A stretch of 64,000 nucleotides of DNA from an uncultured Planctomycetales bacterium (lineage in GTDB: Bacteria; Omnitrophota; Gorgyraeia; Gygaellales; JAHJCI01), in NCBI GenBank assembly GCA_964592485.1, contig CAZQEY010000001.1, positions 95,935 to 159,934 on the forward strand, given 5' to 3'. The position numbers were made by a program, and so were the translations under genes. Under the pieces are notes generated by a model. The model saw only the letters and a list, made by a program, of their open reading frames with translations, was not told the origin of the DNA and made no database searches. Positions 25,671 to 47,012 of this stretch are shown here, in pieces (positions within the stretch are counted from its first letter, which is position 1; each line of letters begins with the position of its first letter).

Positions 25671-25756
25671 GTAGATAGAAATTATTGCACTATACACCAT
25701 AAAACTCTGTTGAGTTAAACAATTTATAAGACATTCGATTTGTAAGATAGAAATTA
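25671..25756. repeat. direct repeat AGATAGAAATTA (x2, 71 bp apart) spanning the 88-bp intergenic region upstream of the 688-aa gene
   Basis: GTAGATAGAAATTA at 25671-25684 and GTAAGATAGAAATTA at 25742-25756. The second copy overlaps the stop codon of the amidotransferase gene. Confidence 0.3.
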
Positions 25757-26950
25757 ACTGACGCGGTGTAATAATTTCCACTCTCCATTTTCCTTTTTCC
25801 ATAAATGAGGTGAAATAGACCGATAAAAGTCAACTACTTCCCAAAATTCATCTTCACTTATATTTAAATATTCCAAGAACTCCTTATAATATTTCTTGGG
25901 AAATTCGCCATCATAGCGATGAACTAATGCTACCCCCTCCTCTCTCTTAAGGTGTCTATCTCTGATTTCGTGAGCTGCATCAGACGTTGCCCTTCCAATA
26001 CCAAATTTAATAAATCCTAAATAGAAATGGAATCCATCTGTTTTATCATCAAGGCTTGCGTACTTGGAATAAGTACCTTCGGATCGTCCGGGATTTGCTG
26101 TAAAACCTGTATGCTCCACAGCAAAATAATAATGTTCCTGTGGTACCCATTTTTTATAATAAGAAAACCAGTGCATTTGAGCATTGATTCTTTTCAACTC
26201 CTCTATAGGAGGATGCCAATAAAAAAGAAATGATTCGTTTTTAACCTCTTCCTCTGTGAAATAACCAATCTCAAGACCTGCTTTAATGAGTTCATCAAGA
26301 GAAGAACCCTGGTAGTAAAATTCACTCCAATCCTCCACGTCTTCATAAGGTTTATCCTTATTTTTGGTAGACCCGCCATATTCAATCTCACCACTCTCAC
26401 CATAAAATACTAAGGGAATTTTAAATCTTACTGCGATATGAAATGCCAGTGCTTTCTGGCCAAGTCCAAAAACCTTAAAATGATCACCCCACAACTCAAA
26501 AGCCAACCTTGAGAGTTTGCGATGTATCTTGCCATTTGCAAATACCAGTATATTATCAAATCCAGAATCTTTAAAAGCGATGTAGTTTTTCCATCCAATA
26601 TCTGTATATAAGTGTGGAGCCCAGGTGACTGTAAGAGGGTGCATTCCATACTTATATTTTAATTGATAACTTACAAATGCACTATCCTTACCCCCGCTAC
26701 CTGGGATAATGCAATCATAGTTACCATCTTTAGAGCGATGTTTGGCAAGTAAATCTAATAACATTTTTTCTCGTTCTTTCCAATCAATAACATGATGTTT
26801 TTCATATGCGTAATCACATGCACTACAAACACCATTTTTATCAAAAGTTATACGAGGCCTCTGGTTAGAAACCACGCATTTCTTACAAAAAAATACTGCT
26901 TTCGGCCTTTTCGCCAATTGCCTGTCTAAGGTTTTACCACCAAACAACAT
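25754..26950 (-). CDS. N-acetyl sugar amidotransferase (PP-loop ATPase; WbuX/PseA-like)
   Basis: N-terminal Cys-rich zinc ribbon (CKKCVVSNQRP...CSACDY), then the PP-loop IIPGSGGKDSAF. Confidence 0.85.
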   Translation of the reverse strand: MLFGGKTLDRQLAKRPKAVFFCKKCVVSNQRPRITFDKNGVCSACDYAYEKHHVIDWKEREKMLLDLLAKHRSKDGNYDCIIPGSGGKDSAFVSYQLKYKYGMHPLTVTWAPHLYTDIGWKNYIAFKDSGFDNILVFANGKIHRKLSRLAFELWGDHFKVFGLGQKALAFHIAVRFKIPLVFYGESGEIEYGGSTKNKDKPYEDVEDWSEFYYQGSSLDELIKAGLEIGYFTEEEVKNESFLFYWHPPIEELKRINAQMHWFSYYKKWVPQEHYYFAVEHTGFTANPGRSEGTYSKYASLDDKTDGFHFYLGFIKFGIGRATSDAAHEIRDRHLKREEGVALVHRYDGEFPKKYYKEFLEYLNISEDEFWEVVDFYRSISPHLWKKENGEWKLLHRVS

Positions 26951-26988
26951 ATTTTACCCCTCTGCCTAAGTTACTTTTTATTAAATCT

Positions 26989-27699
26989 CTAATATGAAAT
27001 CGTTACTTGCACTCTGTTTTTATTCTTCAAAACAGATACTGCCAGTGCCTTATATATCTTTAAGCCTTGCGCTCCACTTCGCTCAGGATGGAACTGACAA
27101 GCAAAAATATTCTTATATTTCAAACTAGAGCAGAACTCAATATCACCATATCGAGTCATTGATAAACATAGTTGTGGTGCATGCAACTTTACATAATATG
27201 AATGGACAAAATACATATATTCGCCGTCAGACAATCCCTCAAGCAACGAATCTTGCCATGAGCCTCGAGAAGATTCTCTCTTATAAATAGTATTCCATCC
27301 AACTTGGGGCACCTTTAAAATATTGCCCTGGCTATCCTTGGGCTTATCTAAACGCACTACAGAACCCTTAACTATCCCCAATCCATTATGTTCGCCAAAT
27401 TCATAACTCCGTTTGCATAATAACTGCATTCCTAAGCAAATTCCCATAAATGGTTTGGATGAGAATGCGGCTTCCTTAATCGTATCAGTTAAATGCAGCC
27501 GCTGTAGCGTCTCCATTGCATCAGCAAATGCACCTACTCCGGGCAAAATTACTGCGTCGGCAGACCGTATCTCATCGCGAGAATACGTTATAATAGCATC
27601 CAAGCCACAATATTTACAAGCTTGCTTTACACTAAAAAGATTGCCCATACCATAATTTATAATAGCGACTTTTGGTCTATCTATATCACTATTACTCAT
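26989..27699 (-). CDS. hisH: imidazole glycerol phosphate synthase HisH-like glutamine amidotransferase (WbuY-like)
   Basis: KVAIINYGMGNL, the catalytic Cys in GICLGMQLL, and HPE near the C-terminus form a class I GATase triad. Confidence 0.9.
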   Translation of the reverse strand: MSNSDIDRPKVAIINYGMGNLFSVKQACKYCGLDAIITYSRDEIRSADAVILPGVGAFADAMETLQRLHLTDTIKEAAFSSKPFMGICLGMQLLCKRSYEFGEHNGLGIVKGSVVRLDKPKDSQGNILKVPQVGWNTIYKRESSRGSWQDSLLEGLSDGEYMYFVHSYYVKLHAPQLCLSMTRYGDIEFCSSLKYKNIFACQFHPERSGAQGLKIYKALAVSVLKNKNRVQVTISY

Positions 27700-28568
27700 G
27701 CTGCACCTACTTCAGAATATCTAGCATATCTACAATGAATTCCTTTATGTATTAGGTATTGCTTTATATCCATAAGTGAAGTATCTTTAATAATTGATAA
27801 GTGCCGCTTACTTTTTAGAAATTCAATATTGCCCTCATCTGAAAAGTCATCTTTAAGCATATCGTGATATTTAATGTAATTAAAATGTAAAATAGAGGCT
27901 ATGCTAACTGCATCGGCTTTACCTTCTTCAACAACCTGATAAATGTGCTCATCTTTCCCGGCTCCACCACATGCAATCACAGGAATTGGAACAGAATCGG
28001 CAACTTTACGCGTTAATTCTATATCAAATCCTTCTCCTGTGCCCTCGCGGTCAATCGAGGTAAGTAGTATTTCTCCTGCGCCTAATTCAACAACGCGTGA
28101 TGCCCATTCAAAAACGTCAACGCCGGTTCCCTCACGCCCATTATCAGTATATGCCTCATAGCTACCGTTATCCTTTTTTAATGCTTCAATCGAAATGACA
28201 ATAGTAGAAGAACCAAAACGTCTAGCTGCCCTCTTAATAAATCCAGGGTCACGAATTCCTCTAGTATTTATTGCAACTTTATCAGCACCAGCTTTGAGTA
28301 TGGTCTGAATATCATCCAACGTTCTCAAACCGCCAGCAACAGTTAAAGGAATAAAAATCTCTTTAGATGTTCGTTTAACAATGTCTAATAAATTATTTCG
28401 CCTATACAAACTGGCAACTATATCTATATAAATCAACTCATCAGCACCGGTTTCATAGTAATAGCGTGCAAAACGTTCTGGCTTACCTAAAATACGTAGG
28501 CCTTCTAAATGCATTCCTTTGACCAGGTTAGGACCCTTGATATCTAACCGCGGTATTACCCTTACCAT
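27696..28568 (-). CDS. hisF: HisF-like cyclase subunit (WbuZ-like), with a ~40-aa C-terminal extension
   Basis: RVIPRLDIKG...GADELIYIDI...GGGIR-type TIM-barrel blocks of HisF. It has a 4-nt overlap with the hisH homolog. Confidence 0.85.
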   Translation of the reverse strand: MVRVIPRLDIKGPNLVKGMHLEGLRILGKPERFARYYYETGADELIYIDIVASLYRRNNLLDIVKRTSKEIFIPLTVAGGLRTLDDIQTILKAGADKVAINTRGIRDPGFIKRAARRFGSSTIVISIEALKKDNGSYEAYTDNGREGTGVDVFEWASRVVELGAGEILLTSIDREGTGEGFDIELTRKVADSVPIPVIACGGAGKDEHIYQVVEEGKADAVSIASILHFNYIKYHDMLKDDFSDEGNIEFLKSKRHLSIIKDTSLMDIKQYLIHKGIHCRYARYSEVGAA

Positions 28569-28596: not shown

Positions 28597-29649
28597 CTAA
28601 GTCGCGAGCTCACTAATTGCCTTTCTATACTCATCCCATTGTCCGACATCTATCCATGATTTCTCACTTAAAGGAAATACGCTAACCTTGCCACCTTGTT
28701 TTTTTACTTTCTTTATTAAGTCTGTCATAAGATAAAAGCTTCTTTCTGGAATAAATCTTAAAACTTTAGATTCTAATACGTACATCCCCGTATTAGCTAA
28801 GAAATCATACTCTGGTTTTTCTCTTATATTTGTCAATTTTCCTCCATTCTTAATCATACAAACCCCATAAGGAATAACAAGATGCCTGTATGAACCTACG
28901 ATGGTTATATCATTAGAATTCCTTTTGTGGAATTGGATAATCTCATGGTAATTACATTTAATTATTATGTCACAATTAGTCACCAGAAAGGAACCACGAA
29001 TTTGGTTTTCTAAAAAATTCAAGCATCCGGTTGTGCCTAATGGTTTTTCTTCATCAATAAATCTAATATTATAGCCGGTATTTGTGTCTTCAAAATATGC
29101 CTTGACCATTTTAGACTTATGATTAATAGAGACATAAAAATCTTTTATTCCATATTCGTTGAATCTATCCATTATTATCCTGATAATAGGTTTTTCTCCA
29201 ATAGGGATTAAGGGTTTGGGCAAAATTCTTGTAAAAGGGTCCAGACGCTTCCCCTCTCCTCCGGCCATAATAACTATGGGAATATTTATTTTTGGTTTAG
29301 ACTTAATAATCTTATTCCCGAAGACGCCTTCCCATAATAAAATCTTGCATATCTGCCGAGATTTGTTTACTACCGGTATGCATTCTATTCTCTCTTTTAA
29401 AATCAAAGACTTTACTGTTTCTATATCGTAATTCTCCTTTATGAACTTCGGCTCTTTATTGATAATTCTTTCAACCCTTTCTTTTAAATTACCCTTTGCT
29501 AAAATCCACCTTCTTATATCTCCATCTGTTAACGCTCCGAGCAATCTATTTCTTGAATCAACTACAAATAGAGTTTTCTCACCTATTCTATCCATGTGTC
29601 TCATTGCCTGCTTTATCGAAATATCTCTGGAAATTAAAAATTTCTGCAT
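28597..29649 (-). CDS. CBS-pair + sugar-phosphate nucleotidyltransferase (PtmE-like)
   Basis: N-terminal tandem CBS region, then MAGGEGKRLDPFTRILPKPLIPI, which is the NTP_transferase G-x-G-x-R-L motif. I placed the start at ATG 29649 with an AGGTAGGG RBS; the track start at 29685 is a TTG. Confidence 0.75.
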   Translation of the reverse strand: MQKFLISRDISIKQAMRHMDRIGEKTLFVVDSRNRLLGALTDGDIRRWILAKGNLKERVERIINKEPKFIKENYDIETVKSLILKERIECIPVVNKSRQICKILLWEGVFGNKIIKSKPKINIPIVIMAGGEGKRLDPFTRILPKPLIPIGEKPIIRIIMDRFNEYGIKDFYVSINHKSKMVKAYFEDTNTGYNIRFIDEEKPLGTTGCLNFLENQIRGSFLVTNCDIIIKCNYHEIIQFHKRNSNDITIVGSYRHLVIPYGVCMIKNGGKLTNIREKPEYDFLANTGMYVLESKVLRFIPERSFYLMTDLIKKVKKQGGKVSVFPLSEKSWIDVGQWDEYRKAISELAT

Positions 29650-29656
29650 CGTATCC

Positions 29657-30277
29657 CTACCTTTTGATTTTTGCCGGAACTCCAAATGTAGTCACTCCGG
29701 AGGGAATATCTTCTATAACAACTGAACCTGTTCCAACCACCACATTATCTCCTATAGTTATGCCTTGAACAATAACAGCACCTGTTCCAATATGGCAGCT
29801 TCTGCCTATATTTGCCCCGCCTGAGATTACAACGCCAGGAGCAATATGTGAATGCGCATCAATTTGACAGTCATGATCAATAGATGCTGATGTATTGATA
29901 ATGACATTTTCTCCAATTATTGTACCTAGATTAATTACTACACCTGCCATAATCTGAACACCTTCACCAATATTGGTATCTGCGGAGATTACTGATTGTG
30001 GATGAATCACAGAAGCAAAACGATACCCCTTACCTTTTAACTCCTCAAAGACTTCTTGGCGCCGAACCGGAAGGCCTACTGAACCAATGCCATTTACGAG
30101 CAAGATCTCATCTGCCGAATAACGCTGGATAGCTGTATCATCTCCTAAATATTTCAAGCCTACAATAACTTTTGGCTCTAAATCTGTAAAACCAACTATA
30201 TCAAATTGACCTGAAAGGCTTAAAATTTCTTTTAAAACTCGTGCGTGTCCGCCTGCACTGATTAGAATAACCTTCAT
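29657..30277 (-). CDS. NeuD/PglD-family hexapeptide sugar N-acetyltransferase (LegH/PseH-functional analog candidate)
   Basis: MKVILISAGGHARVL is the N-terminal Rossmann-like fold of PglD/NeuD. Left-handed beta-helix hexapeptide repeats follow (IGEGVQIMAGVVIN...). Confidence 0.85.
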   Translation of the reverse strand: MKVILISAGGHARVLKEILSLSGQFDIVGFTDLEPKVIVGLKYLGDDTAIQRYSADEILLVNGIGSVGLPVRRQEVFEELKGKGYRFASVIHPQSVISADTNIGEGVQIMAGVVINLGTIIGENVIINTSASIDHDCQIDAHSHIAPGVVISGGANIGRSCHIGTGAVIVQGITIGDNVVVGTGSVVIEDIPSGVTTFGVPAKIKR

Positions 30278-30293
30278 TGATATTCTCTTTTTT

Positions 30294-31457
30294 TTAATTT
30301 GTTATCCTCAAGTCACAAAATCGTTTTGCCTTCAATCTTTCTAAGTCAACATTAGCAAGAATAGATACAATATGTTCACTGGCTTTTCCATCACCGTGCA
30401 AATTTTTAATATCTCCTAAAGATATCCGGAATTCTTCGCTAAGGGCTTTCTTAATACCTTCAATAATCTCTAAAGACGCGTATCCCACATCAATGACGTT
30501 TTTGCTGCGTATCCGGCCTTCCTGGCGCGTCCCAATATTTACCACCGGCAATTTAAAAGATGCTGCTTCAATAATGCCGCTGGAAGAGTTACCAATCATA
30601 ACCACGCTATGTTGCATCATACTTAAGTATCCCTGCTGGCCAAAGTTATCCACATAGAATGTATTGGGGTGGATACTTACAAATGATTTGATTTCACGGA
30701 TTATAATCTTATAACCAGTATCAGCATTAGGAGAAGTAAAAACAATATTATAATCATTGAATATTTCCAAAGCATCTAAAAGATTAGAGATATAGGTCTG
30801 TGTGTTATTATATTCCAGCGTTATGGGATGAAAAGTAATTAGGAAAACAGGTTTCGAAAGATTGATTTTAAATCTTGTTTCCAACTCTTCTTTTAAATAT
30901 ATTGGGAGATTCAAAACATTATCCAATCCAGGAGCCCCTGAAACAATAATACGCCAGGGCTCCTCTCCCATCTGTCGTAAGCGTTGGGCATATGCATTAG
31001 TAGAAACAAAATGAATATGGCTCAATTTAGTAAGAGAATGGCGAAATTGTTCATCAAAGGCACCGTAAGTAATCTCGCCTCCGTGTATATGAGCAATAGG
31101 TATATTAAAAGGAATAGCTGCTATTGCAGCACAATGCATTTCAAAGCGATCGCCCAACACAACTAATATATCTGGTGGATTATCACGAAATATTTTTGCA
31201 AAGCCAGCTGTGCCAACTCCCATTGCCCGAGCAATACCATAAGGAGAATCTAAGGAAGACAATATCTCTACACGTTGCTTTATTGAGAAACCATCATCTT
31301 GGATTATTTTCACTGTATTGCCAAAATCATCTGATAAGTGCATACCAGTAACATAAAGTGACAATTCTAAGTCTGGGTGAGCAGCAATCCTTTTCAATAT
31401 CGGAAAATAAAGCCCGTAATCACACCTGCCACTAGTTACAATGCCAATCCTTCTCAT
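30294..31457 (-). CDS. neuC: hydrolysing UDP/GDP-N-acetylhexosamine 2-epimerase (NeuC/LegG-like)
   Basis: MRRIGIVTSGRCDYGLY...VVLGDRFE...HIHGGE. This is the NeuC-type non-retaining 2-epimerase signature. Confidence 0.85.
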   Translation of the reverse strand: MRRIGIVTSGRCDYGLYFPILKRIAAHPDLELSLYVTGMHLSDDFGNTVKIIQDDGFSIKQRVEILSSLDSPYGIARAMGVGTAGFAKIFRDNPPDILVVLGDRFEMHCAAIAAIPFNIPIAHIHGGEITYGAFDEQFRHSLTKLSHIHFVSTNAYAQRLRQMGEEPWRIIVSGAPGLDNVLNLPIYLKEELETRFKINLSKPVFLITFHPITLEYNNTQTYISNLLDALEIFNDYNIVFTSPNADTGYKIIIREIKSFVSIHPNTFYVDNFGQQGYLSMMQHSVVMIGNSSSGIIEAASFKLPVVNIGTRQEGRIRSKNVIDVGYASLEIIEGIKKALSEEFRISLGDIKNLHGDGKASEHIVSILANVDLERLKAKRFCDLRITN

Positions 31458-32509
31458 AGCAACATATCCAAGGATATAAGCTTGCCTTTTGGTATATCAA
31501 CCCTTGCTTTACGACCAAGCACAGAAAACAGCATATTGGAAGGTGACAAGCCAGTTCCTGGCCGTTTAATTGCAATTAGTTCCTTTTCTAACACTGTCCC
31601 AGCCTTAATTTCACAGGCAGCAACTAAACTCTTGCGTACGACAGCGGCAATCTTACTTTCGCACATTTTCGGCTTTTTACAACCATCACCTAAAGCAACT
31701 TCTATTCTACGGATACTGCGCACCAACAACTTCAACTCATCTGGCTCAATAGAGCTCTTGTGGTCAGGACCAAGTAAACTACGATCTAAGGTAAAATGCT
31801 TCTCAATCACGCCTGCCCCTAAGGCTACAGCGGCAACCGCAATATCAATTCCCAGAGTATGATCAGAGTATCCCACTGGGAGATTAAATGCCTCTCTCAT
31901 CGTTTGTATGGCTCGCAAATTAACATCTTCTGGTTGAGTAGGATAGTTGCTCACACAATGCAACAGGACAATATCTTGATTACCCGACTCATTAATTGCC
32001 TTTATTGCCATTCCCACCTCTTCTAAAGTCGACATTCCTGTTGAAAGAATTATTGGTTTTCCCTTACGAGCAATATGAGTCAATAACGGAATATTTGTAA
32101 TCTCACCAGAGGCAATTTTAAACACCTCAACTCCCAACTCTTGCAGAAAATCTGCACTCTCCTCATCAAATGGCGTAGACATAAAGACAATTTCCTTCTC
32201 TCTGCAGTAAGCATATAAGTTCCAGTGGTCATCTCTGGAGAGTTCCAATCGTTGCAACATTTCCAATTGCGACTCAGAACTACCAGTGGTTTCCATCTGA
32301 TAATCAGCCTTATGAGCCCAAGGAGTCACAAGCCGTTCTGCCTTAAATGTTTGGAATTTAACCGCATCTGCTCCTGCCTGTTCAGCAACATCGACTAATT
32401 GATTTGCCATCTTAAGATCGCCATTGTGGTTAATGCCAGCTTCAGCAATAATAAACACACGCTGCGAATCTATAACCCTATTCCACACACTGCCTACCAT
32501 ACTGTCCAC
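31454..32509 (-). CDS. neuB: N-acetylneuraminate-synthase-family enzyme (NeuB/LegI-like nonulosonic acid synthase)
   Basis: IIAEAGINHNGDLKMANQLVDVAEQAGADAVKFQTF is the canonical NeuB N-terminal block. A C-terminal SAF/antifreeze-like domain is also present. Confidence 0.9.
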   Translation of the reverse strand: MDSMVGSVWNRVIDSQRVFIIAEAGINHNGDLKMANQLVDVAEQAGADAVKFQTFKAERLVTPWAHKADYQMETTGSSESQLEMLQRLELSRDDHWNLYAYCREKEIVFMSTPFDEESADFLQELGVEVFKIASGEITNIPLLTHIARKGKPIILSTGMSTLEEVGMAIKAINESGNQDIVLLHCVSNYPTQPEDVNLRAIQTMREAFNLPVGYSDHTLGIDIAVAAVALGAGVIEKHFTLDRSLLGPDHKSSIEPDELKLLVRSIRRIEVALGDGCKKPKMCESKIAAVVRKSLVAACEIKAGTVLEKELIAIKRPGTGLSPSNMLFSVLGRKARVDIPKGKLISLDMLL

Positions 32510-33297
32510 CCCCCATCCACAACTAGGTTATGGCCTGTTACATATGTGGAAAGGTCGCTGGCAAGATATACAACAGCACCTTTTATATCCTCTTCAGTTG
32601 CCATACGTTGTAACGGTGTGCGATTAATATAACGTGACAAAAATGGCTCCTTATGATTTCTCATTACGCCTCCAATAGTAATTGCATTAACTCGAACTGC
32701 TGGAGCAAGCACTGCTGCCAGCCAACGCGTAAGCTGAAGCAAACCTCCTTTACTTGTACTGTAGGCTGCAGGATTGCCCAAATTAGTATCCTCATACAAC
32801 CGCATATCAGGAGCAACCATTCCATAAATTGAGCCAATATTAATAACTGACCCTTTGCCCGAAGCGCGTAAAGCCTTCTCGCAGCTCTGCACAAGAACAA
32901 ATATCGATGTTAGATTTACTTCCAAAACCTTTTGCCAAGTTTGTACGGATTGCTCCTGAAAACGAACATTCCATCCCTTCAAATCAGACTCACCTACAAA
33001 AGCTGCGCAATTCACAAGAATATCCAATCTCCCAAATTTTTCCAATACTTTGGTACAAACCTTCTTCACTTCATCAACTTTAGCTAAATCTATCAGAAGT
33101 GGCATAACTTCAACATTATATACCTTCTGAATACTCTCTACCTTCTCAAAACAAGCCTTTTTATTGCAATCAAGCAACACAACACAGGCTCCGACTTCTG
33201 CCACTGCTTCTGCCATGATAGAACCGATATGCCCGGCTCCTCCAGTAATTAACGCAACTCTTCCCTCTAAACTCATCAATTCCTGAACAGATCTCAT
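32494..33297 (-). CDS. classical SDR oxidoreductase
   Basis: VALITGGAGHIGS glycine motif and the catalytic YSTSKGG context. Confidence 0.8.
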   Translation of the reverse strand: MRSVQELMSLEGRVALITGGAGHIGSIMAEAVAEVGACVVLLDCNKKACFEKVESIQKVYNVEVMPLLIDLAKVDEVKKVCTKVLEKFGRLDILVNCAAFVGESDLKGWNVRFQEQSVQTWQKVLEVNLTSIFVLVQSCEKALRASGKGSVINIGSIYGMVAPDMRLYEDTNLGNPAAYSTSKGGLLQLTRWLAAVLAPAVRVNAITIGGVMRNHKEPFLSRYINRTPLQRMATEEDIKGAVVYLASDLSTYVTGHNLVVDGGWTVW

Positions 33298-34004
33298 TAA
33301 TTCCTCTCCTTCTTTCTTATTAAAAATTCAGCAATTTCCAAATCCAAAGAAGTATCAATATCCAATGCCCTATACGCAGGAACTATTACTGCCTTTACCT
33401 TTCCTGCAAACAACGATGACATTTGGCAAACATATGAAGCACGTGCAGCATACGCAACAGTAGTCATATCATATACCAGAGGAGCATCCTGACGCCGATT
33501 AATAATAGTTTGTGATTGAATAACCAGCTGCGCATTATCTTCGTCATCAAGAGTAACCATATTAAAATACGGATTGCGCCCTGCTTCTTTTACCGTGATA
33601 ACAATATCGGCATCACTATTTAATAACCGCTCAATACAGGCCTGAACATCTTCAACTGCACGCAAAGGAGATGTGGGAGGAATAGATACTAACACATCAA
33701 CTTTATTTCCTGTTTGTTTTTCAATCGTCTCAACTGCATGCCTCCAGGCCAGTAGTACAGATGCATCATCAGTGGATAATTGCGCAGGTCTCCTAAAGGG
33801 AACTTCGGCACCATAGCGTTGTGCAATTGCCGCGATTTCCTCATCATCCGTAGAAACGATAAGCTTATCAATCAAAGAGACAGCACGACCAACTTCAATC
33901 GCATAGGCAATGAGTGGCTTACCAGCTAATTCTTTAATATTCTTACATGGTAGGCCCCTGGAGCCTCCACGCGCAAAAATTGCACCCAACACATAAGGTT
34001 TCAT
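33297..34004 (-). CDS. acylneuraminate cytidylyltransferase (CMP-nonulosonate synthetase, NeuA/LegF-like)
   Basis: LGAIFARGGSRGLPCKNIKELAGKPLIAY matches the NeuA N-terminus. Confidence 0.85.
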   Translation of the reverse strand: MKPYVLGAIFARGGSRGLPCKNIKELAGKPLIAYAIEVGRAVSLIDKLIVSTDDEEIAAIAQRYGAEVPFRRPAQLSTDDASVLLAWRHAVETIEKQTGNKVDVLVSIPPTSPLRAVEDVQACIERLLNSDADIVITVKEAGRNPYFNMVTLDDEDNAQLVIQSQTIINRRQDAPLVYDMTTVAYAARASYVCQMSSLFAGKVKAVIVPAYRALDIDTSLDLEIAEFLIRKKERN

Positions 34005-35005
34005 AATGAAATTACTTCGTGAGTTTCTGCCGAATGTCGCGCTGCATTTATCATCCTAACCACACGCCTAGCCTCGTCTATTGATACCAACGGCTCTTGA
34101 TTATTAGCGACACATTGAAAAAAGTGCTTCAACTCTGTTTTGTACATCTCGTTCCTGTCTAATTTACCTGGTGTGCACAAATCAGTCCAATTACCAGTAT
34201 CAACAGAATACAGTTGCACGCGATTATCGCCATCGAAATTCCACACCACTGTTCCTTTGGTCCCAACCACACGGCAGGAGCGGTTCGCTGCATAGTCTAT
34301 CATATCAAGATGAATATTACCTAAAGCGCCGTTCTCAAACCTCAAACAAATTTCAGCTATATCCTCAACATCAATCTCCAAATCACTAACCTTACCCAGC
34401 AAAGCGCGTATCTGGGTCACCTCACCCGCTAACCACCGCACATAATCTAACTCATGACTCAACTCAAACAAAACACCGCCACCTAAATCTTTACGTGCGC
34501 TAACTTTATCTTGATAATTCTCTCCAGGACGCCAATTTAACAGATTCTGCCCAACAGATGCCTTAACCGACAAAACTCTTCCTATACAACCCTGCTCCAA
34601 TGCTTTTTTTAAAATTTTAATCGGCTCAAAGAATCGTAATACATATCCAATCATTACTACAAGCTTACGCCTCCTTGACTCTTGCAATAATTCATCTAAG
34701 CCATCATCATTAACTGATAATGGTTTTTCAATAAACAAATGGCTATCTTGTTTGGCAAACATTAACGCTGTCTGGCAATGCATTGTAACAGGATTCGTTA
34801 TAAAAGTAACACTGGGTTTCCATCTTAGCGCATCATCCTGAGAAAAAAACACATTCTCTACTAATGGCTGTAATTCACCCAAAGCAGCTTCTTGAGAAAA
34901 CTGTCTGTAAACTGCTATCTGAATGTTGGCATCAATACTCTTTATGTTCTTAATGTGCCGATTCGCTATACTTCCCAACCCCACAACTAAGATTTTCATA
35001 CTCAT
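34001..35005 (-). CDS. Gfo/Idh/MocA-family NAD(P)-dependent oxidoreductase
   Basis: MKILVVGLGSIANRH N-terminal Rossmann fold with the EKP motif (FIEKPL). Confidence 0.8.
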   Translation of the reverse strand: MSMKILVVGLGSIANRHIKNIKSIDANIQIAVYRQFSQEAALGELQPLVENVFFSQDDALRWKPSVTFITNPVTMHCQTALMFAKQDSHLFIEKPLSVNDDGLDELLQESRRRKLVVMIGYVLRFFEPIKILKKALEQGCIGRVLSVKASVGQNLLNWRPGENYQDKVSARKDLGGGVLFELSHELDYVRWLAGEVTQIRALLGKVSDLEIDVEDIAEICLRFENGALGNIHLDMIDYAANRSCRVVGTKGTVVWNFDGDNRVQLYSVDTGNWTDLCTPGKLDRNEMYKTELKHFFQCVANNQEPLVSIDEARRVVRMINAARHSAETHEVISL

Positions 35006-35074
35006 ACCGTTTTGCTTCTGAATACTCGCAGAGCTATTGTAGACACTGCAGTCGCCAAATGCATATGCGGCTCT

Positions 35075-36571
35075 TTAATCATTTTTTTCATACTCCTGCA
35101 AATATTTTATTAGTTCAGGGAATACCCTTTGTGCAAGTTGTTCGTCTTTCTCACATTTTTCAAGGATAGGAAAAAATTGTTCTGGAAGTTTAGTGTAAAA
35201 TGAAAAGGTTCTTACTAAACCGTTGATTTCATCTCTATTTAAATGAGGTGAATCTAAATTTGCTTTGACACTGCTATAATCTGGAGTTTCTTTTAAGAGC
35301 CCAAACTCCTTTGTAATTTCCGCCAAGCGTGTTTTTGGATACGGATTATAAGCCGCCACAGAAGAAGTGGCTGGCTTAACTTTTCGGTTCAGATGAATAG
35401 TATCAAATACCATCTGCCTTGTTTCAAAGGGTAGTCCTATCATATTATAAGCCGACACTCTTATACCGCTTCTCTTTACAATCTCGTATTTTTTAATAAT
35501 TTCCCCATCAGATATATCTCTATTAAGGACATATTTCCTTACCCAAGGATTCCCACTTTCAATAGCCATTGCCATTGTGATGCAACCCATTTCTTTAAGA
35601 CAATCTACTTTTTCTTCTGTCACTGTTCGTGTTCCAGCGTAAACAATAAAAGGTAAACCGACTTCTTTCTTATAAAGCTTAGCTAATTCTCTTAAATAAC
35701 TAACCGGGAATATTGTAAAATCTTCATCCCAAAATCTAATTGCATTAAATTGATATCTGTCCTTTAATTCTTTAAGCTGCCTTACGGCTACTCTCGGGCT
35801 TTTTCGTCTGTGATAACTCCCACATCCGCTAAATAGTTCCTGTAAGAAATGATTTGAACAGTAGGAACACTTGAATACACATCCTCGACTAATCTCGGTA
35901 TTCATCATCTTGTATATCTTGCCATCAAGAGGACGATAAAAATCATATTCACAAAAATCAGAGAAATCCTGAGCCGGAAGAGTATCTAAATCCTTTAAAT
36001 TTCGCAGTGGATTTTTGTAAATAGTCTCTGGGTTCTTTTTATCTTTTATCCATAAATTTTTAATTTTATTTATGGGCTTCTTCTGGAACTTCTCACAAAG
36101 TTCAACCAGTGCATCTTCGCCTTCACCAACACAAATAATGTCGATGGATCCCTCCTTAATAACTTCGTCAGAACAAATCGTTGGATGAATTCCGCCAATA
36201 ATAATAGTATTTTCCGGAAAATGTTTCTTAATGATTCTACTGCATTTTAAGCCTAGGGGATAAGTACCAGATGTAGTAGTTATACCAACAATATCAGCTT
36301 TGAACTCATCCATAGTATGAACTAAATCTTCCTCGAGAGATTCTATCGCTTTGCGCGGCGCAGGAGTAATTGGTGGAGGTGGAGCGGGTTTAAACATCCC
36401 AAATGATTCCTTAATCGATTGTAAATTTACCTGGGGAACATATTCTGAACAATCAAAAACTGCTACAGAATGACCTTCGGCTCTCAATACAGCACTCAAT
36501 GTAGTTAGGGCTATGGGGATATCTCCGTGTTCGTGAATTTGGGGATAAATAAATAATACTCTCATACGCAA
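35075..36571 (-). CDS. cobalamin (B12)-binding radical SAM enzyme (class B rSAM)
   Basis: CxxxCxxC (RGCVFKCSYCSN) after a B12-binding-like domain. It is a paralog of 4149-5645. Confidence 0.85.
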   Translation of the reverse strand: MRMRVLFIYPQIHEHGDIPIALTTLSAVLRAEGHSVAVFDCSEYVPQVNLQSIKESFGMFKPAPPPPITPAPRKAIESLEEDLVHTMDEFKADIVGITTTSGTYPLGLKCSRIIKKHFPENTIIIGGIHPTICSDEVIKEGSIDIICVGEGEDALVELCEKFQKKPINKIKNLWIKDKKNPETIYKNPLRNLKDLDTLPAQDFSDFCEYDFYRPLDGKIYKMMNTEISRGCVFKCSYCSNHFLQELFSGCGSYHRRKSPRVAVRQLKELKDRYQFNAIRFWDEDFTIFPVSYLRELAKLYKKEVGLPFIVYAGTRTVTEEKVDCLKEMGCITMAMAIESGNPWVRKYVLNRDISDGEIIKKYEIVKRSGIRVSAYNMIGLPFETRQMVFDTIHLNRKVKPATSSVAAYNPYPKTRLAEITKEFGLLKETPDYSSVKANLDSPHLNRDEINGLVRTFSFYTKLPEQFFPILEKCEKDEQLAQRVFPELIKYLQEYEKND

Positions 36572-36599
36572 GTGTATTCTATTTAGATAATTAATAATG

Positions 36600-37775
36600 C
36601 TAACTAAAAAAGGTCTTTATATTCTCTACAACGAAATTTACTTCTTCTTCTTTTAAATTAACACTACAGGGCAAATTGATACAACAATTATATGCCTGCA
36701 CAGCCTGCTTAACGCCATAACTTTGAAACTGGTTGTACATCGGTAAAGTATGCATCAACTTCCATATCGCCCTGACTTGAATTTCTCTTGCAATAAGATA
36801 TTCTATCAAGGCTATTCTGTATTTCTGCGGCACTTTTATAGTATAAAACCAGAAATTACTCTTTGCCCATGATTCCTCCCATAAGAACTCAATTTCATGC
36901 AACCCTGATAATAACTCCCTGTATAGAATAGCATTATTCCTTTTAATAGCTAAGAAATCGTGTAATCTTTCCATTTGGGCAACACCCAAAGCTGCTTGTA
37001 TGTTAGTAAGACGATAATTATAACCGATCTCATCATGCTCCTGTTCATAAACATGTTCCCGTTTTGCCTGTGTTGTTAGATGCCTAATCCGTTGTGCTAA
37101 ACACTGATCATCTGTAACTACCATCCCTCCGCCGCCTGTGGTTATAATTTTGTTTCCGTTAAAAGAGAAACAACCAACTTCTCCTATTGAACCTGTCTTT
37201 TTTCCTTTATATTCGGAGCCAAGACTTTCAGTAGCATCTTCAATTATAGTAATATTATATTTCTGAGATATTTCTAATAATGAGTTCATATCTACAGGAT
37301 GACCAAATATATGTACTGGGATAATTGCCTTTATTCTTCTACAAGTCTTTTTGTTATAAGCATATCCTTCCTTAGTACGTCTACACTCATTGACTAAAAA
37401 ATCAGCCACCTTTTGGATATCCATACATAGTGTTTTAATATTACAGTCCATAAAGACAGGGCTTGCCCCACAATATCTAATGGCATTTACTGGCGCAATA
37501 AAGGTAAGTGTGGGAACGATAACCTCATCATTAGGCTTAACTCCACATGCCATAAGACTTACGTGCAGCGCGGCTGTACCATTCACTGTAGCAACAGCAT
37601 ATTTAGCCCCTACATAATCGGCTACAAGATGTTCTATATTATTAACAAAAGTACCGGCTGAAGAAACCCAACCCGTATCAAGACACTCTTTTAAGTATTT
37701 CCATTCATTACCTGATATTTCTGGTTCCGATAAAGGGATTATATGTTTAATTGCAATATTAGACATTATAGACAT
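36600..37775 (-). CDS. DegT/DnrJ/EryC1/StrS-family PLP-dependent sugar aminotransferase (LegC/PseC-like)
   Basis: The N-terminal region (LSEPEISGNEWKYLKECLDTGWVSS...VNGTAALH) and the lysine-containing GGGGMVV...K context are typical of DegT aminotransferases. Confidence 0.85.
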   Translation of the reverse strand: MSIMSNIAIKHIIPLSEPEISGNEWKYLKECLDTGWVSSAGTFVNNIEHLVADYVGAKYAVATVNGTAALHVSLMACGVKPNDEVIVPTLTFIAPVNAIRYCGASPVFMDCNIKTLCMDIQKVADFLVNECRRTKEGYAYNKKTCRRIKAIIPVHIFGHPVDMNSLLEISQKYNITIIEDATESLGSEYKGKKTGSIGEVGCFSFNGNKIITTGGGGMVVTDDQCLAQRIRHLTTQAKREHVYEQEHDEIGYNYRLTNIQAALGVAQMERLHDFLAIKRNNAILYRELLSGLHEIEFLWEESWAKSNFWFYTIKVPQKYRIALIEYLIAREIQVRAIWKLMHTLPMYNQFQSYGVKQAVQAYNCCINLPCSVNLKEEEVNFVVENIKTFFS

Positions 37776-38757
37776 CCCATTTATATCTATTAAGATTTTC
37801 TTTATGTTTAAACCATTTTATGGTTTCCAGAAGTCCTTCTTGTAAAGAAACTTTGGGCTTCCAATTGGTCAACTTTCTTATCAATCTATTGTCACACACC
37901 AAACGTTTGACTTCACTTCTACCTGGTCTTTTTCTTGCGACTTCACAAGTAATTCTTGCTTTAGGTTTTATCTGTTTTATTATTAGTCCTGCGAGGTCGC
38001 CGATAGTTGTCTCCTGACCTGATCCAATATTAACTACCTTACCAATAGCTTTATCGCATTTAACAAGAGCCATTAACCCTTCACAAATATCCTGTACGTA
38101 GTTAAAATCTCTTGTTGGGAAAAGTGAACCAAGTCTTATTTCGTTGTTTTCATTTAATAGCTGAGTAATTATAGTAGGAATAACTGCTCTTGCAGACTGC
38201 CGTGGACCGTATGTATTAAATGGCCTGGCAATTACCACCGGCAACCCAAAGGATCTATAGAAACTCTCTGCTACAGCATCAGCAGCGATTTTCGAGGCAG
38301 AATACGGAGATTGAGGCTGTAGCGGATGTTTCTCATCTATAGGAACATACTTGGCTGTGCCGTATACTTCAGATGTAGATGTAACAACTACCCGCTTAAT
38401 ATTATAATCGCGGCAGGCTTGCAGAATATTTAAAATACCTTTAATATTTGTATTCACATAAGAATCGGGGGAATGATAAGAAAACGGTATCCCTATTAAA
38501 GCTGCTAAATGAAAAACTACATCTATATCCTTTATTGCTCTTCTAACACCGTTATTATCCCGGATATCACCAGTAAAAACCTCTATTTTGTTTAATTTAT
38601 CCTTTGGAAAGGTATCAAGCCATCCCCAAGAATTAAAAGAATTATAATAAACAAAGGCTTTAACATTACAATTGGCCTTAAGTAAACTCTCTACTAAATG
38701 ACTGCCAATAAATCCACAAGCACCGGTAACTAAAATCCTTTTGCCTTTTAACTCCAT
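37759..38757 (-). CDS. NAD-dependent nucleotide-sugar dehydratase/epimerase (candidate LegB-like 4,6-dehydratase)
   Basis: RILVTGACGFIGSHLVESL and the YSASK catalytic motif. Adjacency to the aminotransferase suggests the 4,6-dehydratase step. Confidence 0.65.
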   Translation of the reverse strand: MELKGKRILVTGACGFIGSHLVESLLKANCNVKAFVYYNSFNSWGWLDTFPKDKLNKIEVFTGDIRDNNGVRRAIKDIDVVFHLAALIGIPFSYHSPDSYVNTNIKGILNILQACRDYNIKRVVVTSTSEVYGTAKYVPIDEKHPLQPQSPYSASKIAADAVAESFYRSFGLPVVIARPFNTYGPRQSARAVIPTIITQLLNENNEIRLGSLFPTRDFNYVQDICEGLMALVKCDKAIGKVVNIGSGQETTIGDLAGLIIKQIKPKARITCEVARKRPGRSEVKRLVCDNRLIRKLTNWKPKVSLQEGLLETIKWFKHKENLNRYKWDVYNV

Positions 38758-38772: not shown

Positions 38773-40209
38773 TTATTCTCCTTCTCGCTTATAATGCCTG
38801 GAGCCTCTAAACTTGTAATCTCCTTTAAAATATAAATTATAAAACTGATCAATCAGAACTTCAGTTTGGTTCACATCTTGATTTGTGTGTTTATAATAGT
38901 CTTCAATAAGTTCTTTATTGGCCTCGAATAAACACTCATAGAATCTTTTTTCTGAGATTTCTGTAAAATTAATTGTTAATAAATCTGAATTCTTGAATCG
39001 CTCAAAGAACTCCTCTGGGCCCGATAACAACCCTCTATCTATAGCCTCATAATATAAATCACAACCCGGATAAGGCGTAACTGGTCTTATAGTCCTAATT
39101 TGATTATAGGTATTATATTTCTTTATAAACGCGACATTATCCTTAAGAACCTCCTCAGTATCTCCTTTATTACCCCATAAAAAATTCAATCCCATTCCAA
39201 TGCCCACTTTTTTTGTAAGTTCTGCGGCTTTAATGTTCTGTTCCACTGTGGACTTTTTATTCATAAGGTCCAATACTCTTTGGCTTGAAGACTCCATACC
39301 AAAGTTAAGAAATGTACAACCGCAATCCTTTAACATCTCCAGCAAATCTTCATTCAGTACATCTACTCTAGCATTACAATCAAACTTTATTTTGAGATTA
39401 TTGGCCTTGAGAGAATCCTTAAGTTCTTTTATGCGTTTTTTTGAAAAAATAAATAATTCATCGGATAAAGAAAAATAAGTTATTCCAAAATCATTGTTTA
39501 ATACCTTCATCTCTTCAATAATACTTTCAATACTCCTGAGTCTAATGCCTTTCTCAATTCTATAACAAAAATTACATTTGCCAACGCAACCCCTGCTTGT
39601 CAAGAAACTTATATACCTATCGGTCTTTTCGTGATGAAAAAGTTTAATACAGGTAGCGTAATTATCAACTGGAAATAAGTTCCACTCAGGAAAAGGAATA
39701 TTATTTAAATTTTTAATGGGTTCTCGTCTCTCATTAATATAGCACCTACCGTTTTCTTTATATGCAATCCCTTTAATTTTAGAAAGCTTGCGCCCCCCGG
39801 CTATCTTGCAATGCAACAGTTCAACAATCGTCTCTTCTGCTTCTCCAATAGCTATAATATCTGCTTTGGTTTTATCTAGTATATATTCTGGGATAGGTGA
39901 GGGCCCATGGCCGCCTAACACCAAGTAAGCATTCTTTTTGCACTCATTTATAACCTTGCATAAATCAAGGATGGTTTCCTTAAATCTTGCTGCCATAAAA
40001 CCAATACCGATTAAATCAAACTCGTTCTCTAACAAAAACTTTGATAATTCTTCATTCGAATAATGAAAAACATCCTGCGAATATACAGTTACTTGGGCTC
40101 CCTCTTTTTTTAATACCGAGGCCAAATACCCTATACCCAGAGGAAATACGTTATCATCCTGATAAACATCATGAACTATTAAGAGTACTCTACCTAATTC
40201 TTTCTCCAT
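38773..40209 (-). CDS. cobalamin (B12)-binding radical SAM enzyme (class B rSAM)
   Basis: CxxxCxxC (RGCVGKCNFCYR). I placed the start at ATG 40209 with an AGGGAGA RBS; the track start at 40236 would overlap the upstream gene by 47 nt. Confidence 0.85.
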   Translation of the reverse strand: MEKELGRVLLIVHDVYQDDNVFPLGIGYLASVLKKEGAQVTVYSQDVFHYSNEELSKFLLENEFDLIGIGFMAARFKETILDLCKVINECKKNAYLVLGGHGPSPIPEYILDKTKADIIAIGEAEETIVELLHCKIAGGRKLSKIKGIAYKENGRCYINERREPIKNLNNIPFPEWNLFPVDNYATCIKLFHHEKTDRYISFLTSRGCVGKCNFCYRIEKGIRLRSIESIIEEMKVLNNDFGITYFSLSDELFIFSKKRIKELKDSLKANNLKIKFDCNARVDVLNEDLLEMLKDCGCTFLNFGMESSSQRVLDLMNKKSTVEQNIKAAELTKKVGIGMGLNFLWGNKGDTEEVLKDNVAFIKKYNTYNQIRTIRPVTPYPGCDLYYEAIDRGLLSGPEEFFERFKNSDLLTINFTEISEKRFYECLFEANKELIEDYYKHTNQDVNQTEVLIDQFYNLYFKGDYKFRGSRHYKREGE

Positions 40210-41755
40210 ATATATTTTCTCCCTTATATTGCCCATTTTCCCATAAGCTCTGTATGGCTCTGGTTACGGAAATTACATTTTCTTTAGGAGAAATATTTAC
40301 TAATTTCTTATAGCTACTATCGACATATCCTTGGAAACTGAACTTTTCTAAAGCATAGATAAATGCCCTTACATTCTGAGTATTAACTTTATATCCCTTT
40401 TCTATCTTCGATAAAGCCTCTTTGCAGCTAGACTGAGTCGGAGTATAGAATACCCCTTCGCAACCTCTGTACCATGCGTATCCAAAAATAAGAACTGGCT
40501 TGCCTCTTATTACCGCCTCCCAGCCCACCGTTCCAGTGACTGTGGCGACTGCTTTGGAATTATCAATCAGGTCAAACGATGATACTGAAAGCGACACTAG
40601 TTTTACATTAGGTAGTGAAGCAATATCATCATAAAAATAAAGGGGTCTTGAACGTTCGCCTACTGCATAGGGGCTGAATTGTACTATATGTTCCTTTACA
40701 TACAAACTCCACCCTTTAGGTAACAATTTAGAAAGTAAATCTATCATAAGCAGCTGGTTAACAAAGACTCCTCCATCAGGAGAAGTAGTTTTTTCTGGTT
40801 GATAATGAAGCACAACATAGATATATGGTTTATCAATACAAACCGGCTCTGCCAATTTATTATAACAAGACTTGAGCTTTCGTTTATATTGCTCAGCTTT
40901 AAATTTACACAGCCAGATATATTTAAGATAAGTCATCTTTGAATCATCAAATTTCCTGCCCTTTAGTTTTATATAATTATGTGGCGCAGGCTTATAAATA
41001 AACTGTATATATTTACATAAAGTCCGTAATTTCTTCATAATAATAGTAATGAGATTATTCTCTTTAGCTTTTTGTAAGAATTCATGCTTTATATACGAAG
41101 GGAACGCAATATCATAAGAGCCTAAAACCTTTTTCCAATAATTCTCTGCAATAGGTGACAATGTAAGCTCTAAAGGTTGTCTGCGAGATAGCAGTTCTTT
41201 ATATAAAGATATTACTGGTTCAATCCTATCTTCGAATCTCTCTATCGGATAGAATAGCCCTTCGATGGTTAAGGTTAAAAACGTAACTGTTCTTATTCCT
41301 TGTCTCTTACATAAAATATATAATATATAATCATACACTATATGCGGAGAGGCAGGAAAAACAACAACATCTGGTTGATAATGTTGCAGAACTGAAAGCC
41401 AATACTTAATCTGCAGATGATAAAGTCCTTCTCGCTCCTGATAGGAAAAAGCACAACCAGGATCCATCCTATCAAGCATATTGAATATAGTTGATTCATA
41501 AACTGCTAAATCCTGTAACAATGCTTGATCTAGGGTTGCTAGATTAAGCCCTGAGCAATCATGCGGACTATGCCCTCTGATTGCATCTATGGTATAATGG
41601 AATACTATCTCGGGAAAAGCTCGCTTGACAATACTTTCCAAATCCGGCATGGCAATCCAATAACACGGCTGCCAATCGCTTTCTCTTTTGAGACTCACAG
41701 CCACATCCACCCAAAAGGACTCAGAACACTCGGCAAAGATTGCTTTAATAGCCAT
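40190..41755 (-). CDS. hypothetical protein with a KpsC/KpsS-like (Capsule_synth-type) C-terminal motif; candidate CMP-ulosonic-acid transferase
   Basis: C-terminal TVTGTVGWEAVIRGKPVLIFG resembles the conserved t-x-S-S-x-G-x-E-A-l-x-x-G-k-P-V block of KpsC/KpsS beta-Kdo transferases. YQPEK sits where the other paralog-like proteins carry an HP motif. Confidence 0.45.
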   Translation of the reverse strand: MAIKAIFAECSESFWVDVAVSLKRESDWQPCYWIAMPDLESIVKRAFPEIVFHYTIDAIRGHSPHDCSGLNLATLDQALLQDLAVYESTIFNMLDRMDPGCAFSYQEREGLYHLQIKYWLSVLQHYQPDVVVFPASPHIVYDYILYILCKRQGIRTVTFLTLTIEGLFYPIERFEDRIEPVISLYKELLSRRQPLELTLSPIAENYWKKVLGSYDIAFPSYIKHEFLQKAKENNLITIIMKKLRTLCKYIQFIYKPAPHNYIKLKGRKFDDSKMTYLKYIWLCKFKAEQYKRKLKSCYNKLAEPVCIDKPYIYVVLHYQPEKTTSPDGGVFVNQLLMIDLLSKLLPKGWSLYVKEHIVQFSPYAVGERSRPLYFYDDIASLPNVKLVSLSVSSFDLIDNSKAVATVTGTVGWEAVIRGKPVLIFGYAWYRGCEGVFYTPTQSSCKEALSKIEKGYKVNTQNVRAFIYALEKFSFQGYVDSSYKKLVNISPKENVISVTRAIQSLWENGQYKGENIYGERIR

Positions 41756-41804
41756 TTCTAGCCCTCAAATTATTAACCTTTTTAATATGTATATTTGTGT
41801 ATAT

Positions 41805-46997: not shown

Positions 46998-47012
46998 GAT
47001 TTAAAATCCTTC

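Follow-up and report, generated by a model that had tools for sequence, protein, structure and literature searches.

Within a 64,000-nt stretch of contig CAZQEY010000001.1 from an uncultured bacterium (hereafter the window), we analyzed a block of genes that resembles the known gene sets for legionaminic acid (Leg), a nonulosonic acid, and that encloses a gene for a B12-binding radical S-adenosylmethionine (radical SAM, rSAM) enzyme, here called rSAM1. The window, with a GC content of ~0.36, consists of a single long array of minus-strand genes, and positions 28597-38757 are spanned exactly by ten consecutive minus-strand open reading frames (ORFs). Transcription runs from LegB to PtmE, that is, from high to low coordinate, and the ten genes are listed in that order:

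37759..38757, minus strand: LegB-type NAD-dependent sugar-nucleotide 4,6-dehydratase, first gene of the module (TIGR04180; GDP_Man_Dehyd/Epimerase)
36600..37775, minus strand: LegC-type pyridoxal phosphate (PLP) aminotransferase, predicted to add the 4-amino group (TIGR04181; DegT)
35075..36565, minus strand: rSAM1, radical SAM enzyme with a B12-binding domain, between legC and the Gfo gene (B12-binding + Radical_SAM)
34001..35005, minus strand: Gfo/Idh/MocA oxidoreductase, PtmF/ElaA-like (GFO_IDH_MocA N- and C-terminal domains)
33297..34004, minus strand: cytidine monophosphate (CMP)-nonulosonate synthetase, LegF/ElaB-like (CTP_transf_3)
32494..33297, minus strand: classical short-chain dehydrogenase/reductase (SDR), PtmA/ElaC-like by position and family (adh_short, adh_short_C2)
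31454..32509, minus strand: LegI-type nonulosonate synthase of the NeuB family (NeuB + SAF; TIGR03569)
30294..31457, minus strand: LegG-type hydrolysing nucleoside diphosphate (NDP)-sugar 2-epimerase (Epimerase_2; TIGR03568)
29657..30277, minus strand: LegH-type NeuD/PglD N-acetyltransferase (PglD_N + hexapeptide repeats; TIGR03570)
28597..29685, minus strand: PtmE-like CBS + sugar-1-phosphate nucleotidyltransferase (CBS + NTP_transferase)

All ten genes that a sequence-only reading had placed here were recovered, in the same order and at the same coordinates, by the ORF listing and the Pfam search. The main defining domain of each ORF reached an E-value of 5e-20 to 1e-104, and the accessory domains (CBS, PglD_N, B12-binding and the Gfo N-terminal domain) reached 1e-10 to 1e-16, so that the ten-gene matches lie far past chance. 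Between neighboring genes there are overlaps of 1-29 nt or gaps of no more than 69 nt, a layout that fits a predicted single co-directional operon. A scan of the block for promoter- and terminator-like sites gave a number at the level of shuffled sequence.

The encoded proteins were compared with the curated models of NCBIfam, with sequences from the PDB and with two Leg-type O-antigen clusters of E. coli; these clusters came from a search of 5426 E. coli genomes at the DNA level, and their genes were read from the RefSeq annotation. The window was also compared with genome and metagenome loci of the rSAM1 family, which carry L numbers below. LegB scored 495.2 bits on TIGR04180 (cut-off 475; GDP_Man_Dehyd E = 9e-73), and a search with the dehydratase that the E. 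coli Leg clusters encode, a PglF-like (Polysacc_synt_2) protein, gave no window ORF at E ≤ 1e-5. LegC reached 512.2 bits on TIGR04181 (cut-off 420), stayed at 277.5 bits on the PseC model (cut-off 423.5), and was 43-48% identical to E. coli LegC family proteins. LegH exceeded the cut-off of TIGR03570 (222.6 vs. 160.8 bits), a family-wide model that is not specific for Leg.

The assignment of the synthase and the epimerase to the Leg, Neu or pseudaminic acid (Pse) enzymes was made by bit scores. LegI scored 483 bits on TIGR03569 (cut-off 399.65) and 319 bits on the PseI model, below the cut-off of 340. Against individual enzymes, it scored 363 and 333 bits with the NeuB homologues of the two E. 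coli Leg-type clusters, vs. 192 bits with N. meningitidis NeuB, 221 bits with B. subtilis SpsE and 200 bits with a PseI structure. LegG passed TIGR03568 (453.6 vs. 235.9 bits) and scored 330 and 310 bits with the NeuC homologues of the E. coli clusters; its best solved relatives were the A. baumannii GDP/UDP-N,N'-diacetylbacillosamine 2-epimerase structures 5ZLR and 5XVS (302 bits), vs. 196 bits for human GNE. Both enzymes thus scored 1.6-1.9 times higher against Leg-type than against Neu-type enzymes, and by this measure they do not group with the enzymes of N-acetylneuraminic acid (Neu5Ac).

The two remaining core enzymes were placed by family and architecture. The CMP-synthetase matched CTP_transf_3 (E = 5e-24, 85.6 bits) and fell below the PseF cut-off (160 vs. 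205 bits), and the libraries searched hold no Leg-specific curated model for this enzyme. The sequence-only reading had further called the last gene a CBS + nucleotidyltransferase of PtmE architecture, which its Pfam domains (CBS, residues 18-62; NTP_transferase, residues 138-360) and its position in the cluster bear out. The protein is 31-32% identical to the nucleotidyltransferases of the E. coli Leg-type clusters and 49% identical to its homologue in L084, and it was the top window match for each E. coli Leg-cluster nucleotidyltransferase in a one-way search from E. coli to the window.

A Neu5Ac (sialic acid) module would share the NeuB, NeuC and CMP-synthetase families with this block, and TIGR03569 and TIGR03568 indeed carry the names of Neu5Ac enzymes. 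However, LegB and LegC, both above their cut-offs, and the NeuD-type acetyltransferase would all be unneeded for Neu5Ac, the synthase and the epimerase score higher with Leg-type enzymes, and the search of E. coli genomes returned Leg-type clusters in both match loci inspected. With these scores, we reject the Neu5Ac identity, whose probability we regard as negligible, in agreement with the Leg-type module proposed in the sequence-only reading. Judged by its sequence, the block is a LegB/PtmE-type legionaminic acid module of the Campylobacter/Tannerella-like kind. It is a complete and fairly standard Leg-type gene set, and its pathway is already known in kind. Among the nucleotide-activated N-acetylglucosamine (GlcNAc) substrates tested with the T. 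forsythia LegB homologue BFO_1074, only guanosine diphosphate (GDP)-GlcNAc was converted, and C. jejuni PtmE is specific for guanosine triphosphate (GTP) (PMC5378307). Because the window combines a LegB-type dehydratase with the PtmE architecture, these specificities make a GDP-linked route the best inference, and the module presumably follows it.

The Gfo, CMP-synthetase and SDR genes form a contiguous triad in this order, with overlaps of 4 nt and 1 nt. The triad also occurs in the cluster of E. coli S30 and in the environmental loci L084, L176 and L044, with a matching order in S30, L176 and L044. The S30 cluster comprises a dehydratase, LegC, NeuC, NeuB, an acetyltransferase, a nucleotidyltransferase, Gfo, a CMP-synthetase and an oxidoreductase. 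Its gene order equals the Elg1-7 scheme of serogroup O108, which carries 8-epilegionaminic acid (8eLeg); the serogroup of S30 is thus taken from gene order alone. The other E. coli cluster, O161 (Leg5Ac7Ala), is without the Gfo/SDR pair. The window Gfo was the sole match of the S30 Gfo in the one-way search from E. coli (33% identity). It is 67% identical to the homologue in the L176 triad, and its closest named homologues are from metagenome-assembled genomes (MAGs) of Candidatus Omnitrophota (50-64% identity); the window probably stems from an uncultivated member of this group. The CMP-synthetase is closer to the S30 triad enzyme (48% identity, 214 bits) than to the non-triad enzyme of O161 (33% identity, 104 bits). 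The SDR matched adh_short_C2 (E = 6e-48) and is 65% identical to the SDR at the equivalent position in L176.

In the Plesiomonas Leg cluster, PtmA (SDR), LegF, PtmF (oxidoreductase) and PtmE are listed together, with homologues in V. fischeri, E. coli and C. coli (PMC4481668, Table 5). For A. baumannii, Leg5Ac7Ac is associated with lgaABCDEFG and 8-epi-Leg5Ac7Ac with lgaABCDEF plus elaABC (PMC9676051). According to structural work from 2026, the Gfo/Idh/MocA enzyme ElaA oxidizes C8 of CMP-Leg5,7Ac2, the SDR ElaC re-reduces it and ElaB is the CMP-synthetase, the C8 chemistry being backed by structures and docking (PMC13656337); the ElaA, ElaB and ElaC crystal structures were not among the matches in our PDB sequence search. 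The SDR, the Gfo/Idh/MocA enzyme and the rSAM enzyme had been set apart in the sequence-only reading as having no role in the described Leg route. This holds for the B12-rSAM only. The other two belong to the PtmF-LegF-PtmA/ElaA-ElaB-ElaC set of described Leg clusters (PMC4481668, PMC13656337), and treating them as extras outside the route was an error. By family and gene order, the Gfo and SDR genes are the known PtmF/PtmA = ElaA/ElaC pair, that is, standard parts of Leg clusters and not a sign of new chemistry.

By analogy with ElaA and ElaC, the pair may oxidize and then re-reduce C8 of the CMP-sugar to give the 8-epimer, a role whose chances we consider about even. Presence and absence of the pair follow 8eLeg and Leg, respectively, in A. 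baumannii and E. coli, the C8 chemistry fits the ElaA/ElaC structures with docked CMP-Leg5,7Ac2, and the pair always flanks the CMP-synthetase, which is the last enzyme of the pathway and not the first. Several observations pull the other way. Campylobacter has the triad, and its flagellin carries Leg and is not known to carry 8eLeg, which makes the C8-epimer prediction uncertain. The SDR is also the weakest link of the triad assignment as judged by model scores: it is not a PtmA equivalog (142.3 bits on NF050062, cut-off 350), its other best curated model, NF006619, likewise stayed below the cut-off (198 vs. 255 bits), and its identity with the SDR of S30 is just 29%. The window LegB, moreover, is of the Campylobacter type and not of the PglF type found in E. 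coli and A. baumannii, which produce 8eLeg. The Campylobacter product and the LegB type favor a role as in Campylobacter PtmF/PtmA, at the start of the pathway and in the supply of GDP-GlcNAc, with a product that keeps the Leg configuration; a passage of PMC4481668 places ptmA in the first (GDP-GlcNAc) pathway segment, after Schoenhofen et al. 2009 as cited there. We give this precursor-supply role a substantial but lesser share of the probability than the C8 epimerization. Given the ElaA/ElaC-like pair, an 8-epimer rather than the D-glycero-D-galacto product is a real possibility.

All nine standard Leg/Ptm functions are present in the block, so rSAM1 adds a step and replaces none, and it is the only enzyme of the block without a described role in the Leg pathway. 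Its ORF extends over 35075-36571 with a likely ATG start at 36565, and gaps of 34 nt and 69 nt separate it from its neighbors. An exact-sequence search with rSAM1, made with either start codon, matched no contig, and a 20.7-kb Logan contig of the same organism was reached through LegB only. The B12-binding domain PF02310 (57.8 bits, cut-off 32.1) and the Radical_SAM domain PF04055 (72.6 bits) were both recognized in Pfam, and the CxxxCxxC motif (C229/C233/C236) is invariant in 26 homologues. All NCBIfam matches to curated subfamilies (HpnJ, BchE, PhpK, HpnR, KedN5, MgmA-type, AprD4 and others) stayed far below the cut-offs, the best being HpnJ with 108.9 bits vs. 577.6. The only solved relative found by sequence was the diol dehydratase AprD4 (42 bits). 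An AlphaFold2 (AF2) model built with 26 homologues (mean predicted local distance difference test, pLDDT, 93.7) resembled MgmA, TsrM, AprD4, OxsB, CysS and TokK about equally, with template modeling (TM) scores of 0.60-0.67 and 13-17% identity. The domains, the motif and the modeled fold make a clear case for the class of B12-type radical SAM enzymes. A literature search, judged by title or abstract, gave no link between radical SAM enzymes and Leg, Pse or nonulosonate synthesis.

B12-binding radical SAM enzymes most often methylate unactivated carbon atoms, and we tentatively favor such a methylation, on the sugar or on one of its N-acyl groups, as the likeliest single reaction of rSAM1, at clearly less than even confidence. 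A methylated nonulosonate derivative is a plausible product. The fold search weighs against a firmer statement, since it did not separate the methylases (TsrM, TokK, CysS and MgmA) from the non-methylases (AprD4 and OxsB). The enzyme might instead tailor the nonulosonate by dehydration or deoxygenation as in AprD4, by epimerization, or by a rearrangement as in OxsB or HpnJ; AprD4 is its sole solved relative by sequence, and the non-methylases HpnJ and BchE are among the best curated matches, far below cut-off as these are. We nevertheless consider such a reaction unlikely: the majority of characterized enzymes of this two-domain architecture are methyltransferases, the B12-binding domain of rSAM1 is above its Pfam cut-off, and a partner reductase of the AprD4 type is not evident apart from the Gfo/SDR pair, which is already assigned.

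Relatives of rSAM1 lie inside three other Leg-type gene sets, each time at a different position: in L084 (69% identity), in L002 (64%) and in L176 (33%). The gene order in L084 is LegC-PtmE-LegH-rSAM-LegI-LegG-SDR-Gfo-CMP-synthetase-WbuX-HisH-HisF. L002 holds Leg genes, partly fragmented in the assembly, together with HisF/HisH/WbuX and the rSAM gene. In L176, the B12-rSAM gene lies between LegI and LegG; this locus is the closest Leg relative of the window, with 65-67% identity in the triad and 73% in WbuX. Close rSAM1 orthologues also stand beside NeuB and/or a CMP-synthetase in L083, L092 and L093-95. Minimal clusters with DegT, rSAM, CMP-synthetase, NeuB and NeuC recur in L123, L126, L128 and L131. 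In the last of these, the gene just before the rSAM gene (6224-6943) encodes an MptE-like domain (PF01973), which Maf transferases of flagellin nonulosonates contain as well.

The family context was counted in 77 genome and metagenome loci with at least 8 kb of flank. A NeuB-family gene lay within 10 kb of the rSAM1 relative in 32 of the 77 loci and within 3 kb in 20, a CMP-synthetase was nearby in 36, and NeuB and/or a CMP-synthetase occurred within 10 kb in 41. The rSAM1 family as a whole comprises ~2,300 clusters at 50% identity (E ≤ 1e-30), from MAGs assigned to Omnitrophota, Planctomycetota, Nitrospirota, Pelagibacterales, Methanoregula, Nanoarchaeota and others. When L002, L084 and L176 are compared with the window, rSAM1 orthologues with 64-76% identity occur in loci whose Leg enzymes share only 32-56%, and the rSAM of L176 is only 33% identical to rSAM1, which indicates that the rSAM and Leg genes do not have a single common history.

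These data admit two readings of the association, to which we give about the same, rather low probability. The large rSAM1 family might constitute a dedicated tailoring step of nonulosonates (Leg/Pse-type) that yields C-methylated or otherwise radical-modified sialic-acid-like sugars, the window with its two such enzymes being one example; we put this forward tentatively. B12-rSAM genes inside four Leg-type sets despite a rearranged order (window, L084, L002 and L176), the share of the 77 loci with NeuB and/or CMP-synthetase within 10 kb or with NeuB within 3 kb, and the minimal clusters, which offer few other targets, all argue for a link of the enzyme to the nonulosonate pathway. The module could also make a described Leg derivative (Leg5Am7Ac or 8eLeg5Am7Ac), with the rSAM enzyme acting elsewhere, on another residue, the polymer or a carrier, and placed here by gene shuffling. 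The variable position of the rSAM gene relative to the Leg genes is in line with this possibility, and the window has four B12-rSAM genes across its 64 kb of glycan genes, so that the target of rSAM1 could be a different sugar in this glycan. Further points weigh against a role confined to the nonulosonate. The 77-locus counts include a few contigs twice and lack a matched control. A close orthologue in L001 lies in a polysaccharide locus with no NeuB nearby, and a 55% orthologue in L085 lies in a flagellin glycosylation island without NeuB. In L003/L004 (=L098) and L090/L091, orthologues with 67-71% identity stand alone in non-glycan neighborhoods, one with UPRTase, a thioredoxin-like protein, NUDIX and DUF2845, the other with a MacB-type ABC transporter, Fur and Fe-S proteins. 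These lone copies are hard to reconcile with a strict role of rSAM1 in a sugar pathway. With orthologues of 55-71% identity in other glycan islands and in non-glycan neighborhoods, the notion of rSAM1 as a Leg-specific enzyme was rejected.

The Leg block is adjoined on both sides by genes that were absent from the sequence-only reading:

38773..40236, minus strand: rSAM2, a second B12-binding radical SAM enzyme (B12-binding + Radical_SAM)
27696..28568, minus strand: HisF-like cyclase subunit (WbuZ-like), acetamidino system (His_biosynth)
26989..27699, minus strand: HisH-like glutamine amidotransferase subunit (WbuY-like) (GATase)
25754..26950, minus strand: WbuX-family N-acetyl sugar amidotransferase (TIGR03573)

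The last three form a contiguous trio (25754-28568) directly downstream of the block. The HisF-like gene (His_biosynth E = 2.4e-64) begins 28 nt after the PtmE stop and overlaps the HisH-like gene (GATase E = 1.5e-17) by 4 nt. WbuX scored 345.3 bits on TIGR03573 (cut-off 203.2) and is 73% identical to its L176 homologue. The same trio follows or lies within the Leg sets of L084, L002 and L176. By family, WbuX/HisH/HisF is the standard set for the conversion of acetamido to acetamidino groups, and by analogy the trio probably converts one acetamido group of the nonulosonate in this way.

On the upstream side, rSAM2 ends 15 nt before legB. It has a CxxxCxxC motif at residue 217, is 22% identical to rSAM1 and, by its position, probably belongs to the Leg module. 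rSAM1-like and rSAM2-like genes occur together, at most 10 kb apart, in ~14 loci, e.g., L052, L105, L106, L109, L111, L112 and L132. The four B12-rSAM genes of the window (4149-5645, 20144-21535, 35075-36565 and 38773-40236) encode proteins that are 22-32% identical to each other, all with CxxxCxxC.

Taken together, the genes are more probably than not one co-directional set for a CMP-activated 5,7-diamino-3,5,7,9-tetradeoxynonulosonic acid of the legionaminic family, made by a Campylobacter/Tannerella-type route with accessory Gfo/SDR, acetamidino and rSAM steps. Here, the gene identities come from sequence, and the chemistry of the core pathway is taken from characterized families. The PtmE-like enzyme would activate hexosamine 1-phosphate, after which LegB would carry out the 4,6-dehydration, LegC the 4-transamination and LegH the N-acetylation. 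LegG would then remove the nucleotide and epimerize C2, LegI would condense the product with phosphoenolpyruvate (PEP), and the LegF-like enzyme would activate it with CMP. As accessory steps, the Gfo/SDR pair may oxidize and re-reduce C8 of the CMP-sugar to the 8-epimer, the WbuX/HisH/HisF trio may turn one acetamido into an acetamidino group, and rSAM1, probably also rSAM2, may perform a further tailoring step without a described precedent in nonulosonates. Such a pathway would be expected to end in CMP-activated Leg or 8eLeg with an acetamidino group and possibly with one further modification that depends on a radical SAM enzyme.

Upstream of the Leg block, the minus strand carries a complete pseudaminic acid module at 43725-53152, likewise absent from the sequence-only reading:

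43725-44750, minus strand: PseI (470 bits)
44747-46252, minus strand: PseG-PseH fusion of the Pse module
46239-48856, minus strand: WbuX/HisH/HisF trio, the Pse module's own copy
48919-49563, minus strand: SAM methyltransferase of the Pse module
49594-50442, minus strand: CMP-synthetase of the Pse module
50501-51697, minus strand: PseC (510 bits)
51719-53152, minus strand: CBS-fused SDR, at the place expected for PseB

The acetamidino trios of the Pse and Leg modules are 32-43% identical to each other. Two genes lie between the modules:

41805-43673: fused transmembrane domain-nucleotide-binding domain (TMD-NBD) ABC exporter
40190-41755: 521-aa protein with a weak Capsule_synth (KpsS/KpsC-like) match

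By their family matches, these genes (40190-43673) hint at an ABC-transporter-dependent export of the glycan. An apparent third CMP-sugar cassette is found at 8641-15067, with the following genes at its center:

12739-13521: CTP_transf_3 gene
13518-14339: HpcH/HpaI aldolase, between the two CTP_transf_3 genes
14339-15067: CTP_transf_3 gene

The neighbors in this cassette are a methyltransferase, an epimerase, a 2-hydroxyacid dehydrogenase, a cyclase and a HAD hydrolase. The pair of aldolase and cytidylyltransferase also stands beside rSAM1-like genes in L083, L152 and L160 (58-67% identity), and in L159 the aldolase alone was recovered (78%). Elsewhere in the window, the ORFs 60325-60912 and 60761-61720 overlap by 152 nt, and the former has dTDP_sugar_isom and Polysacc_synt_C matches over the same residues; a frameshift, a misplaced start codon or a spurious match to one of the models could explain this. 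Four large ORFs had no Pfam match (23599-25665, 688 aa; 16483-18456, 657 aa; 5642-7645, 667 aa; 1562-3265, 567 aa), the first of them also no NCBIfam match, and they are candidates for unrecognized glycosyltransferases or polymerases.

Nonulosonic acids decorate flagella, capsules, lipopolysaccharides (LPS) and S-layers, and they influence recognition by the immune system, the attachment of phages and the properties of the cell surface. Their known diversity lies in stereochemistry and in N- or O-acyl groups. If rSAM1 does modify the sugar, this would be a carbon-level tailoring new to nonulosonates, and the gene would be a genomic marker of it in many uncultivated lineages. The analysis also corrects a common annotation trap, in that genes for a Gfo/Idh/MocA enzyme and an SDR are regular components of Leg clusters and may form a C8 epimerase pair. 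What is new here is the recurrent embedded B12-rSAM accessory in an otherwise known Leg pathway.

Compared with the CMP-Leg pathway of C. jejuni and Tannerella forsythia, the window has the same enzyme families, including the LegB-type dehydratase, the CBS-nucleotidyltransferase and the PtmF-LegF-PtmA triad, and adds an embedded B12-rSAM, an upstream B12-rSAM and the WbuX/HisH/HisF trio; the likeness to C. jejuni is one of families and curated models, with the SDR below the PtmA equivalog cut-off. The 8-epi-Leg clusters of A. baumannii KL49 (lgaABCDEF + elaABC) and E. coli O108/O61 (elg) have the triad in the order of the window but, unlike the window, carry a PglF-like dehydratase and are without rSAM and WbuX genes. 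Aliivibrio salmonicida, with 8eLeg5Am7Ac, uses a WbuX-type amidotransferase system, and the window is similar in having WbuX and HisH/HisF-like genes beside the Leg genes. Legionella pneumophila likewise makes an acetamidino nonulosonate, Leg5Am7Ac, with a WbuX-type amidotransferase. For neither of these acetamidino systems is an rSAM described, in contrast to the window. Among radical SAM enzymes, GenK and Fom3 are cobalamin-dependent C-methylases of sugars. With the class B enzymes TsrM, TokK/ThnK, CysS, MgmA and OxsB and with their B12-domain relative AprD4, rSAM1 shares the N-terminal B12-binding Rossmann domain and the barrel with CxxxCxxC, at 13-17% identity; it differs from them in its setting, which is a nonulosonate/CMP-sugar context and not an antibiotic, ribosomally synthesized and post-translationally modified peptide (RiPP), lipid or cofactor pathway.

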